Positions 30,001 through 33,000 of a stretch of 64,000 nt of DNA are shown piece after piece. Position 1 is the stretch's first letter, and each line of letters opens with the position of its first letter. Where the stretch lies: NCBI RefSeq assembly GCF_017348835.2, contig NZ_CP071375.1; one strand, 5' to 3'. Made by a program: the position numbers. This stretch comes from Escherichia coli. GTDB taxonomy: Bacteria; Pseudomonadota; Gammaproteobacteria; Enterobacterales; Enterobacteriaceae.

Positions 30001-33000
30001 AGGGTTGTGTGCCGTGAGTGGAGTGTCACGGATAATGCCCGGTACAGTGATTTCAGTTGCACGATAGAGCAGGTGGTGAACTGATGCAGGATATTCACGA
30101 AGAAAGCCTGAACGAGTCGGTTAAGTCAGAGCAGTCACCGCGGGTGGTGCTCTGGGAAATCGACCTGACGGTGCAGGGCGGTGAGCGGTATTTTTTCTGC
30201 AATGAGCTGAATGAAAAAAGGGAGCCGGTGACCTGGCAGGGGCGGCAATATCAGGCGTACCCGATTGAGGGCAGTGGCTTTGAGATGAACGGAAAGGGCA
30301 GCAGTGCCCGCCCGTCGCTGACGGTGTCCAATCTGTTCGGTCTTGTCACCGGGATGGCGGAGGATTTGCAGAGCCTGGTGGGTGCCACGGTGGTCCGCCG
30401 CCGGGTGTATGCGCGTTTTCTGGATGCGGTGAACTTTGTGGCAGGCAATCCGGAGGCCGACCCGGAGCAGGAGCTGACTGACCGGTGGGTGGTGGAGCAG
30501 ATGTCATCGCTGACGGCCATGACGGCCTCGTTTGTGCTGGCCACACCGACCGAGACGGACGGGGCGCTGTTTCCCGGTCGCATCATGCTGGCGAACACCT
30601 GTATGTGGACCTACCGCTCTGATGAGTGTGGTTACACGGGCGGGGCTGTGGCGGATGAGTTCGATAAACCCACCACCGATATCCGTAAGGACAGATGCAG
30701 CAAGTGCATGCGCGGGTGTGAGATGCGCGGCATGGTGGCTAATTTTGGCGGTTTCCTTTCCATCAATAAACTTTCGCAGTAAATCCTGTTTTATGACACA
30801 GACTGAATCAGCGATTCTGGTGCATGCCCGGCGGTGTGCGCCTGCGGAGTCGTGCGGCTTCGTGGTGAGAACGCCGGAGGGGGAGCGGTATCTGCCGTGT
30901 GTGAATATCTCTGCAGAGCCGGAGGCGTATTTTCGTATTGCACCGGAAGACTGGCTGCGGGCAGAGATGCAGGGGGAGATTGTGGCACTGGTCCACAGTC
31001 ATCCCGGTGGTCTGCCCTGGCTGAGCGAGGCCGACCGGCGGCTGCAGATAAAAAGTGCACTGTCCTGGTGGCTGGTCTGCCGGGGGGAAATTCATAAATT
31101 CCGCTGTGTGCCACATCTGACAGGACGGCGCTTTGAGCACGGGGTGACGGACTGTTACACGCTGTTCCGGGATGCATACCATCTGGCGGGAATTGATATG
31201 CCGGATTTTGAGCGTGAGGATGACTGGTGGCGCAATGGTCAGAACCTGTACCTGGACAATATGGAGGCGACTGGTTTTTACAGGATTTCCCTGCCTTCCG
31301 CACAGCCTGGCGATATCCTGCTGTGCTGCTTTGGCGCATCGGTGGCCAATCATGCCGCCATATACTGCGGCAACGGTGAGCTGCTTCACCATCTGCCTGA
31401 ACAACTGAGTAAACGGGAGAGGTATTCCGAAAAATGGCAACGACGAACGCATTCAGCCTGGCGTCACCGCCACTGGCACGTATCTGCCTTCACGGGGATT
31501 TACAACGATTTGGCCGCCGCCTCAGCCTGTATGTGAACACGGCAGCGGAAGCCATCCGTGCCCTGTCGATGCAGATGCCGGGCTTTCGCCGTCAGATGAA
31601 CGAAGGCTGGTACCAGATACGTATTCGCGGTGAGGACACGGCACCGGAGGCGGTGTACGCCCGTCTTCACGAACAGCTGGGTGAGGGAACGGTCATCCAC
31701 ATTGTGCCGCGACTGGCCGGGGCCGGAAAAGGTGGACTGCAGATTGTGCTGGGGGCGGCAGCCATCGTGGGCTCTTTCTTCACTGCCGGGGCAACGATGG
31801 CGTTATGGGGTTCAGCCCTGGCAGCCGGTGGTTTTTCTGCCACCACGATGCTGTTTTCACTGGGGGCCAGCATGATACTGGGTGGTGTGGCTCAGATGCT
31901 GGCCCCGAAGGCTAAAGTACCGGAGTACAAAAGCACGGATAACGGCAGACAGAACACGTACTTTTCCTCGCTGGATAACATGATTGCACAGGGGAACCCG
32001 ATGCCGGTGCCTTACGGTGAAATGCTGGTTGGCTCACGGCGAATCTCCCAGGACATCAGTACCCGTGATGAAGGCGGTGACGGGAAGGTGGTGGTTATCG
32101 GGCGGCAGGCATAAAAGCGAAAAAATCCCGCAGTGACCGAAGGCTGCGGGAACAGAAAATGAAGATTAACCACAGGGAGTTTTGTTTTTATTGGCCCGAA
32201 AAAACTGTAACGCCCGGGAATGATATCTGCCACGGGGGCGTACAGAAAATGTGAAGAAATTCAGAAATTTTATTCCGTCATGACACAGGCACCCTCCGGG
32301 GTGCCTGTCGTTTTTGGGGCATAAACAGATTCAGACATCAGACAGGAGAGGGGGACAGAGTGGGTAAAGGTGGCGGCAAGGCGCACACGCCGGTTGAGGC
32401 AAAGGACAATCTTAAGTCCACGCAGATGATGAGCGTGATTGATGCCATCGGTGAGGGACCGGTGGAAGGTCCGGTGAAGGGGCTGCAGAGTATTCTGGTG
32501 AACAAAACCCCGCTGACGGACACGGACGGTAATCCTGTGATACATGGTGTGACAGCGGTCTGGCGCGCCGGGGAGCAGGAGCAGACACCGCCGGAAGGTT
32601 TTGAGTCATCCGGCTCTGAAACCGCACTGGGCGTGGAAGTGACGAAGGCAAAGCCGGTGACGCGCACCATTACGTCCGCGAACATTGACCGCCTGCGGGT
32701 TACCTTCGGGGTGCAGTCACTGGTGCAGACCACCTCACAGGGTGACCGTAACCCGGCATCCGTCCGCCTGCTGATTCAGCTGCAGCGTAACGGTAACTGG
32801 GTGACGGAAAAGGATGTCACCATTAACGGCAAGACCACCTCACAGTTCCTCGCTTCGGTGATTCTGGATAATCTGCCTCCCCGCCCCTTTAACATCCGGA
32901 TGGTCAGGGAGACGGCGGACAGCACCACGGACCAGCTGCAGAATAAGACGCTGTGGTCGTCATACACCGAAATCATCGATGTGAAACAGTGCTACCCGAA

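Follow-up and report, generated by a model that had tools for sequence, protein, structure and literature searches.

Tail genes K and I of a lambda-like module in Escherichia coli share a conserved 103-nt overlap

Tail genes K and I overlap by 103 nt in the window, by which we mean the whole 64,000-nt stretch of Escherichia coli DNA that was analysed (contig NZ_CP071375.1). The overlap is genuine, conserved and already annotated; it is an ordinary and known feature, not a sequencing frameshift. With a probability of roughly 0.9, we read it as a lambda-type K/I junction in which two real, separately initiated genes share these 103 nt in two frames. The original prediction had placed the end of K at 31536 and the start of I at 31434 in another frame, with about 100 nt in common, and these coordinates are right to the base. 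It had also thought the overlap probably genuine from its likeness to lambda K and I, and the phage lambda annotation (J02459 / NC_001416; K 14276..14875, I 14773..15444) carries an identical 103-nt overlap.

The I frame lies at -1 relative to K ((31434-30793) mod 3 = 2), and the module order M, L, K, I, J is that of lambda (Table 1). The product of 32360..35836 is presumably J, judging from an N-terminus like that of lambda J and from its place next to I in the lambda gene order. The neighbouring junctions are all of the usual short kind (H/M an 8-nt overlap, M/L a 1-nt overlap, L/K a 10-nt gap), so that K/I stands out as the sole long overlap in the tail module. An open alternative frame alone is not significant, since open runs of 35-96 codons also occur in alternative frames elsewhere inside K and I, both of which are G+C-rich; it is conservation that raises the K/I overlap above chance.

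Table 1 Coordinates of the K/I junction and neighbouring tail genes in the window
Feature	Position	Strand	Basis or remarks
Gene M	29743-30084	+	Pfam Phage_min_tail
Gene L	30084-30782	+	Pfam Phage_tail_L
Gene K, tail tip assembly protein K	30793..31536	+	247 aa; ATG 30793, stop TGA 31534-31536; ORF, Pfam, lambda K homology
SD-like GGGAGAGG for I	31415..31422	+	Inside K codons R-E-R; 11 nt upstream of ATG 31434
Gene I, tail tip assembly protein I	31434..32114	+	226 aa; ATG 31434, stop TAA 32112-32114; ORF, Pfam, lambda I homology
Dual-coding K/I overlap	31434..31536	+	103 nt; K codons 214-247 plus stop; I codons 1-34
I residues 1-13, unstructured leader (predicted)	31434..31472	+	Overprints end of K NlpC/P60 core; KWQRRTHSAWRHRH
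I ubiquitin-like (beta-grasp) domain, residues 14 to ~97	31473..31724	+	Ends in Gly-rich AGAGKGG
K C-terminal alpha-helix, residues 230-246 (predicted)	31480..31530	+	AF2; sequence VSAFTGIYNDLAAASAC
I C-terminal plug region, residues ~137-224	31842..32105	+	Aligns to 9e7m gpI chains (query 137-223)
Gene J (central tail fibre), presumed	32360..35836	+	ORF; 245-nt spacer after I

Sequence analysis of K revealed a Prok-JAB domain (PF14464, aa 4-105, E 7e-15, 55 bits against a cutoff of 25) followed by an NlpC/P60 domain (PF00877, aa 111-224, E 3.5e-13, 50 bits against a cutoff of 23). This JAB/MPN plus NlpC/P60 architecture, encoded between L and I, is that of the lambda gpK/TAPK family, and the annotation at the equivalent place in Stx2a_WGPS2 is a 247-aa 'C40 family peptidase'. 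H68, S69, H70, S78, D81, C121, H187 and H199 are invariant in 23 K sequences and E19 and C21 nearly so; we take these columns to be the JAMM E...HxH...S...D motif and the NlpC/P60 Cys and His motifs. K thus appears to carry the catalytic-type residues of its putative peptidase domains. A search of the PDB with K gave only a weak JAB-domain match, 2kks, and hence no solved structure of gpK to compare with the predicted tail helix. In lambda, gpK is reported to be needed for tail assembly yet is absent from virions (PMC10721106, PMC12617516).

Gene I encodes a Lambda_tail_I domain (PF06805, aa 15-97, E 5.5e-16) and matches PDB 8iyk chain I (gpI) over its full length (E 8.5e-95). An N-terminal Ubl domain running to a conserved Gly, a Gly-rich or hydrophobic linker and a C-terminal plug domain follow one another as in lambda gpI/TAPI, and 25 diverse I proteins all share G21, P92 and G96. 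In the AF2 model, strands and helices extend across residues 14-92 with pLDDT ~90-97 in a beta-grasp-like arrangement, and residues 1-13 are without secondary structure at lower pLDDT, so the fold is predicted to begin at residue 14, inside the overlap. The Ubl assignment, the predicted cleavage after the terminal Gly and the JAB-Ubl pairing were put forward by Iyer et al. 2006 (PMC1779556). Only gpI 134/135-223 is resolved in lambda virions (PMC10721106, PMC12617516).

Alignment with lambda gpK and gpI, which the original prediction had proposed as a check, carried both window proteins to the ends of the overlap: K is 85% identical over 197 aa and I 66% identical from residue 1 to 224. It had further held that a C-terminal stretch of about 30 K residues without counterpart in any homologue would count against the overlap. 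These residues are matched in every lambda-like homologue, and counterparts persist in homologues whose identity is as low as 35-50%.

Of 169 related loci with K identities of 67-100%, 156 carry the same overlap of 103 nt, and it is annotated in Stx2a_WGPS2 as in lambda. Throughout the shared segment both ORFs are unbroken and have homologues among known proteins, and wobble freedom is lost there. Among 130 unique sequences, variable K third positions fall from 96% in the K-only flank to 76% in the overlap (Fisher p=0.0015), and variable I third positions from 99% in the flank to 55% (p=7e-11). In 43 close relatives, 9-15% of wobble sites vary in the overlap against 34-40% in the flanks, and the K stop TGA and the I start ATG are invariant in 43/43. 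Constraint in the first 42 nt of the overlap is seen in the K frame only. Overall, both frames look functional in the overlap, which is a fixed feature of the enterobacterial lambda-like clade and not an error.

The C-terminal end of K deserves separate consideration, as most of the wider K family ends before the helix and the window K extends past that point by ~20 residues. The AF2 model of K (whole-model pLDDT 95.8) places a helix at residues 230-246, with block pLDDT values of 97/97/86. A tail motif, [WF]xxxx[FILM]x[GA][ILV]x[NDE][DN][LFM], is retained down to 35-40% identity. Loci in which the I start coincides with or follows the K stop (L090, L091, L092, L173-L187, L193 and L197) have it as well, which argues that the K tail is under selection of its own. 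The motif is kept, with conservative swaps among F/I/L/M, G/A, I/V/L, N/D/E and L/F/M, in at least 15 distinct loci without an overlapping I frame. These loci weigh against the reading that only the I frame matters and that the last ~20 residues of K are a functionless read-through tail conserved through the Ubl strand of I. The NDL motif is indeed partly forced by the conserved I codons for Q/K-R-F-G (CAA CGA TTT GG reads AAC GAT TTG), no class of site in the second part of the overlap varies more than K second codon positions (entropy 0.38), and many K homologues function without any tail. However, variation at I synonymous sites is strongly reduced within the overlap (entropy 0.27 vs 0.98), the tail helix is predicted with pLDDT 86-97, and we consider a functionless K tail improbable.

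Within K, the I gene appears to carry its own initiation signals. Translation from ATG 31434 would give the N-terminal peptide MATTNAFSLASPPLAR, and the K codon AAA supplies the A of this ATG. The codons forming the SD are almost invariant in the 130 unique sequences (K GAG 130/130, the rare Arg AGG 129/130, AAA 129/130), counts which overstate independence given that the sequences are phylogenetically related. The Arg codon adjoining the SD uses five synonyms in the same set, and 96% of K third positions vary elsewhere. The arrangement GAGAGG-N11-ATG is therefore conserved inside K against synonymous drift, as would befit independent initiation of I. The 11-nt spacing is long, and GAGAGG probably acts as the I ribosome-binding site. 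ATG 31434 is the only ATG, GTG or TTG upstream of the Ubl fold in the window; the next candidate, GTG 31533, would remove the conserved strand ICLHGDLQRFG. Sequestration of the I ribosome-binding site by RNA structure was also considered and rejected: the fold of 31390-31480 is no stabler than that of shuffled sequences (z = 0.08), and no Rfam match was found in 31300-32400.

A start of I downstream of 31434, at the CTG of codon 14 or later, would reduce the overlap to ~64 nt or less and leave the first 13 codons untranslated. Several observations point that way. I codons 1-14 evolve purely in the K frame, with leader substitutions tracking that frame only (entropy 0.55, 0.20 and 0.12 at K pos3, pos1 and pos2, respectively), and the leader is predicted to be unstructured. 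Non-enterobacterial I homologues lack the leader and start at the codon-14 equivalent, as does I in a sister group of obligately overlapping loci (MATIKLYG..., MVNVKFYG...). Lambda has an ATG at codon 14, and there lambda and many relatives carry ATG, GTG or TTG, made by a conserved Trp codon of K. In the window, however, codon 14 is CTG with no SD upstream, there is no ATG, GTG or TTG between 31434 and 31533, and GAGAGG-N11-ATG, including the rare AGG, is held invariant against synonymous drift. We therefore regard a downstream start as improbable. Even so placed, it would leave an overlap of at least 61 nt, because the conserved Ubl strand begins at 31473-31476. For phages with a start at I codon 14, an overlap of 64 nt is equally possible. 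The lack of I-frame selection in the first 13 codons fits a passenger leader; it would also fit non-translation in those phages.

Programmed -1 ribosomal frameshifting in the overlap, giving a K-I fusion after the manner of lambda G/GT, would supply another reason for the overlap to exist, and we judge it very unlikely. Lambda G and GT are tail assembly chaperones whose programmed -1 frameshift needs a conserved slippery heptamer and yields a fusion. K and I resemble them in that two tail-assembly frames of one operon overlap in a -1 relation, and a run GAAAAAT precedes and includes the I ATG; they differ in having neither a slippery site nor a recurrent fusion, and in an I gene that appears to be served by an SD and ATG of its own. 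No heptamer of the form X XXY YYZ in the K frame was found anywhere in 31400-31536, the A-run is not conserved (lambda has GACAAATG), and the fold and Rfam results above give no sign of a stable RNA structure. K-I fusion proteins do occur in databases, and Iyer et al. 2006 (PMC1779556) mention that TAPI is occasionally fused to TAPK or TAPJ, but each of the four fusion proteins is a singleton with a junction of its own, pointing to independent indels, and there are related loci in which I is non-overlapping or in another frame (L091). With slippery heptamer, RNA structure and recurrent fusion all absent, frameshifting, artefactual or programmed, was rejected.

The remaining alternative, raised in the original prediction as a frameshift behind the K 3' extension, is that a sequencing or assembly indel or a pseudogenising frameshift carries K past its true stop and creates a spurious overlap. 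In its favour, the distant K homologues of HK97-like, Aeromonas, Klebsiella, Vibrio and Moraxella phages end ~5-13 residues beyond invariant Arg224 and align only to query residue ~226, and rare singleton K-I fusions made by indels exist in databases. Comparative sequence data already refute it, since a 247-aa K with the exact tail is the normal form and the usual length in large protein clusters (P0006, P0008, P0014, P0017, P0020 and P0021, with hundreds to >10,000 member sequences) that occur on hundreds to thousands of contigs, the same overlap is annotated in independent phage records, TGA and ATG are unchanged in 43/43 close relatives, and the tail is a conserved, confidently predicted helix whose motif persists at 35-50% identity.

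Taking K and I as two separately initiated genes, we propose the following working of the junction. I would begin at ATG 31434, within the last strand of the K peptidase core, served by the GAGAGG SD written in K codons. Its first 13 residues would form an unstructured leader whose sequence is dictated by the K frame. As the Ubl domain begins at I residue 14, the same DNA would then encode both the K terminal helix and the first strand and helix of that domain. Ribosomes translating K would pass over the I initiation site, and we infer that synthesis of the two proteins is linked on one message by translational coupling. The partners so coupled would be a peptidase-type assembly factor, K, and a plug protein, I; mature particles lack the N-terminal Ubl domain of I. 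K may itself cleave I, and Iyer et al. 2006 predicted K to be the protease that removes the I N-terminal domain.

The junction matches lambda in gene order, frame relation, the SD-like GAGAGG and the position of the ATG. It differs in codon 14 of I (CTG in the window, ATG in lambda), in the I-J spacer (245 nt against 60 nt in lambda) and in the annotated length of K, 199 aa in the lambda reference against a full 247 aa here. The lambda reference K is probably truncated at the N-terminus by one G missing, near nt 14262, from the 1982 sequence. It would thus probably lack the first 47 residues, including part of the JAB domain, and only its 3' end is a good yardstick. The same functional pair is represented in the F-pyocin of P. 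aeruginosa, where PA0639 (gpK homologue) is an essential maturation factor not found in the particle and PA0640 (gpI homologue) is the plug protein, its N-terminal domain removed in mature particles (bioRxiv 10.64898/2026.02.24.707460). HK97/HK022-type and more distant pairs (HK633, Aeromonas pAEv1818, Klebsiella Fuzzy_ER39, Moraxella Mcat16, Vibrio pVa-1) share a homologous JAB+NlpC/P60 K followed by a Ubl-type I in the same tail module. In contrast to the window, their K is without the C-terminal helix, and the K/I overlap is 8-16 nt or morons are inserted between the genes. Ordinary short same-strand phage overlaps (ATGA, 4 nt; 1 or 8 nt) likewise join genes of one strand and operon, with presumed coupling of initiation, and are described as arising by replacement of start or stop codons (PMC3887535). 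The 103 nt of K/I differ in encoding structured parts of both proteins, and the overlap therefore constrains protein evolution as well as initiation.

A tentative and rather doubtful scenario for the origin of the overlap is that the K C-terminal helix was born by overprinting the 5' end of I, after which the overlap was fixed and later resolved in a sister lineage. As in HK97-like and Aeromonas phages, K of the ancestor would have ended ~7 residues after Arg224, adjoining the I start. Once its stop was lost, K would have read ~20 codons into the I 5' end in the +1 frame, with the new tail becoming useful, and the enterobacterial lambda clade would later have shifted the I start 39 nt upstream to give 103 nt. 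The sister lineage would have un-overlapped the segments, keeping the K helix and the first strand of I as separate DNA. The spacing of the Arg codon of K and the Gly codon of I is 83-89 nt in the non-overlapping sister lineage vs 32 nt, and this difference of 51-57 nt roughly matches the overlap of 58-61 nt. When a neighbour-joining tree was built from the K core, the non-overlapping tail clade came out as sister to overlapping L003, inside a tail-bearing clade, a placement which is suggestive only, the tree having short internal branches and no bootstrap. We also considered tandem duplication as the origin of the non-overlapping K-tail loci and rejected it: in-register nucleotide identity is 0.30 vs 0.20-0.34 in offset controls, and no residual paralogy was found between K-tail DNA and I 5' DNA in these loci. 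'Ghost' RFG readings in the -1 frame of K tails were set aside as well; they are largely forced by the K N-D-L codons and so are not independent evidence. If true, the scenario would document how a dual-coding segment arose, became fixed and was later resolved within the structural operon of a dsDNA phage. Our literature search for the K/I overlap or its origin returned only general papers on overlapping genes, and the mildly new points here are that the K tail may have arisen by overprinting and that the lambda reference K is probably truncated.

The overlap has little importance except for annotating the junction correctly. Both ORFs should be retained at full length by gene callers and curators, with neither K trimmed nor the I start moved, and the widely used 199-aa lambda reference K could mislead structural or biochemical work on gpK. 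The conserved C-terminal helix of K is a candidate functional element, and the overlap, linking a peptidase-type maturation factor to a plug protein that loses its Ubl domain, is a sensible site at which to study how K and I synthesis is coordinated.

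The K and I genes share 103 nt, from the I ATG at 31434 to the end of the K TGA at 31536, with I read in the -1 frame relative to K; a reading of the ORFs gave exactly the K end and I start named in the original prediction. At the other junctions of the tail-tip module the distances are short, with overlaps of 8 nt and 1 nt and a gap of 10 nt. Thirty-four open codons in an alternative frame are unremarkable here, runs of 35-96 codons being found elsewhere in the same G+C-rich genes, so the case for the overlap was built on comparison and not on ORFs alone. On that basis the overlap is real and conserved; it is also already known from the lambda annotation and hence of low interest as a novelty.

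Layout of the tail-tip module in the window
Gene	Position	Strand	Features
M	29743-30084	+	lambda-type tail-tip module
L	30084-30782	+	lambda-type tail-tip module
K	30793-31536	+	247 aa; prokaryotic JAB aa 4-105, NlpC/P60 aa 111-224
I	31434-32114	+	226 aa; Lambda_tail_I domain aa 15-97
J	from 32360	+	lambda-type tail-tip module

Many Stx-converting lambdoid phages match the region at 93-98% identity, and in phage Stx2a_WGPS2 (NC_049941) both coding sequences are annotated with an overlap identical to that of the window. Lambda K and I overlap too, as the original prediction stated: in NC_001416, K (14276..14875) and I (14773..15444) likewise share 103 nt, the DNA alignment at the junction is gap-free, and the proteins (85% identical for K, 66% for I) can be aligned through the shared segment. 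Both genes could be placed in 169 loci, made up of IMG/VR prophages whose K is 67-100% identical and of fetched phage records; in 156 of these, exactly 103 nt lie between the earliest start codon in the I ORF and the K stop. The exceptions are four lambda-like loci with a disrupted I ORF and, for the remainder, distant homologues.

The lambda reference itself differs near the start of K, reading GGAGGC-TATTTCC where the window and the independently sequenced lambda imm21 (OM418625) read GGAGGCGTATTTCC. The missing G falls within lambda nt 14133-14279 (1134-1280 of the compared lambda locus L002; compare window 30793-30945 and 835-980 of locus L253). In its absence the first 47 K residues are out of frame, which leaves the annotated K at 199 aa; restoring it gives one uninterrupted 246-aa K frame that starts at ATG 14133 and encodes the whole JAB domain. 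The 131-nt query lacking the G matched exactly only J02459, NC_001416 and two other records, while the 132-nt form matched KT232076, LC730321 (48,503 bp), PV340536, DE3, HK629 and HK630. The base was probably left out of the 1982 lambda sequence.

Selection in the two frames was compared as per-site entropy by codon position over 130 unique sequences. Entropies at positions 1, 2 and 3 were 0.23, 0.13 and 0.68 in the K-only flank (K frame) and 0.46, 0.35 and 0.98 in the I-only flank (I frame). Across its first 42 nt the overlap follows a purely K pattern (K position 3, 0.55; position 1, 0.20; position 2, 0.12), which indicates that the I leader (residues 1-13) is a passenger of the K frame. Over the last ~60 nt the wobble is damped in both frames (I position 3, 0.38; K position 3, 0.30), and the lowest entropy, 0.155, lies at I position 2, which is K position 1 and non-wobble in either frame. 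Compared with the flanks, the overlap has a smaller share of variable third positions in either gene (K, Fisher p=0.0015; I, 7e-11), and 43 close relatives agree, with 9-15% variable sites in the overlap against 34-40%.

A frameshift had been raised as another source of the K 3' extension, but this is rejected because the tail is conserved in homologues and forms a predicted helix (residues 230-246, pLDDT 86-97, in an AlphaFold2 model of pLDDT 95.8). By their C-terminal ending, distant K homologues divide into a short and a tailed group. In the short group (HK97-like, Aeromonas, Klebsiella, Vibrio, Moraxella) K stops 5-13 residues past the invariant Arg224, and there is an 8-16 nt K/I overlap or inserted genes lie between K and I. 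The tailed group has counterparts of the K C-terminus down to 35-40% identity, in a tail of ~20 residues with the pattern [WF]xxxx[FILM]x[GA][ILV]x[NDE][DN][LFM]. Measured between K codon Arg224 and the Gly codon in the I motif hxhxGxLx[KR]x[FY]G, the spacing is 32 nt in 216 loci, which makes overlap obligatory there, and 83-89 nt in 21 tailed loci lacking the long overlap; L090 and L092 have a 4-nt ATGA junction and L091 zero overlap. Since the tail is kept in such loci, it is maintained independently of the I frame. The lineage with the helix motif kept and I starting at or after the K stop comprises the metagenomic and IMG/VR loci L090, L091, L092, L173-L187, L193 and L197, and there the Arg224-to-Gly spacing is 83-100 nt.

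An artefactual frameshift at K/I was rejected. A programmed one was likewise rejected: a scan of the overlap region found no slippery heptamer X XXY YYZ, the A-run at the I ATG is not kept in lambda, folding found no stable RNA structure at the junction, and an Rfam search of the region gave zero matches. Four K-I fusion proteins exist in the database (clusters P0025, P0041, P0116 and P0120), each a single-member cluster, and they switch frame at four different points, all inside the overlap; they therefore have the look of separate 1-nt indels or assembly errors and not of programmed frameshifting.

The I start at 31434 is the first start codon past the in-frame TAA at 31410-31412 and the sole ATG, GTG or TTG ahead of GTG 31533, a start that would cost the conserved first strand. 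The AlphaFold2 model of I has a beta-grasp fold at residues 14-92 (pLDDT ~90-97) and unstructured residues 1-13. Upstream of the ATG, at a spacing of 11 nt that tempers this reading, lies the Shine-Dalgarno-like GGGAGAGG (31415-31422), written in K codons Arg-Glu-Arg. These K codons are GAG in 130/130 and the rare AGG in 129/130 unique sequences, whereas five synonyms occur at the adjacent Arg codon and 96% of flank K third positions vary; the K codon AAA, which makes the I start ATG and not GTG, is kept in 129/130. Invariant GAG, AGG and AAA are best explained by selection on the I Shine-Dalgarno and start. As a caveat to the 31434 start, a start codon also stands at I codon 14 in lambda and many relatives, an NTG forced by the K Trp228 codon. 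In a sister group of overlapping loci I begins at codon 14, giving a 64-nt overlap.

The register of the overlap, K [GA]-I-x-N/E-D-L over I G-x-L-x-R-F-G, is common to the 103-nt and 58-64-nt classes. A crude NJ tree unites all tail-bearing K, and in it the non-overlapping clade is the sister of one overlapping locus. This grouping and the constant register fit a speculative scenario in which the K tail was born by stop-codon loss and overprinting of the I 5' end, one lineage later resolving the overlap. A direct test for residual duplication in the non-overlapping tailed loci found none. The -1 frame of K-tail DNA in the non-overlapping lineage yields I-like fragments (ERFG, QRF), mostly forced by K's own N-D-L codons.

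Downstream, the I-J spacer (32115-32359) is 245 nt, compared with 60 nt in lambda. At 32285-32308 it forms a strong hairpin that resembles a terminator, with a 10-bp stem (7 G-C pairs) and a T-run. Copies of the spacer at least 95% identical were seen in 90 of the 101 phage records that matched, most of them Stx-converting phages; the spacer is annotated in none of the eight matching records listed and has no Rfam match. Relatives carry a transposase (Stx2a_WGPS2) or antirepressor/Arc-like morons (phage 2851) at the same junction, which marks it as an insertion hot spot. In prophage L166 (IMG/VR UViG_2609459825_000007) the I ORF turns after ~78 residues into a Lom/Ail-like outer-membrane protein (...GIGYKF), which suggests deletion of the I 3' part and the whole of J in a decaying prophage. 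The window ORF after J (35869-36528), in the place of lom in lambda, encodes a signal-peptide-bearing protein with C-terminal GFIVGIGYKF and a Lom/Ail family resemblance.

The I N-domain has been identified as ubiquitin-like, and the K JAB peptidase is predicted to free it at a terminal glycine (Iyer, Burroughs and Aravind 2006, PMC1779556). In lambda cryo-EM, gpI is visible only at 134/135-223 and gpK is absent (PMC10721106, PMC12617516). In F-pyocin, stalled tips still carry the N-domain of the gpI homologue and mature particles have lost it; the gpK homologue, itself non-structural, is a factor essential for maturation (bioRxiv 10.64898/2026.02.24.707460). From this, K and I make up a functional pair, and an I initiation site within K would probably link K and I synthesis.
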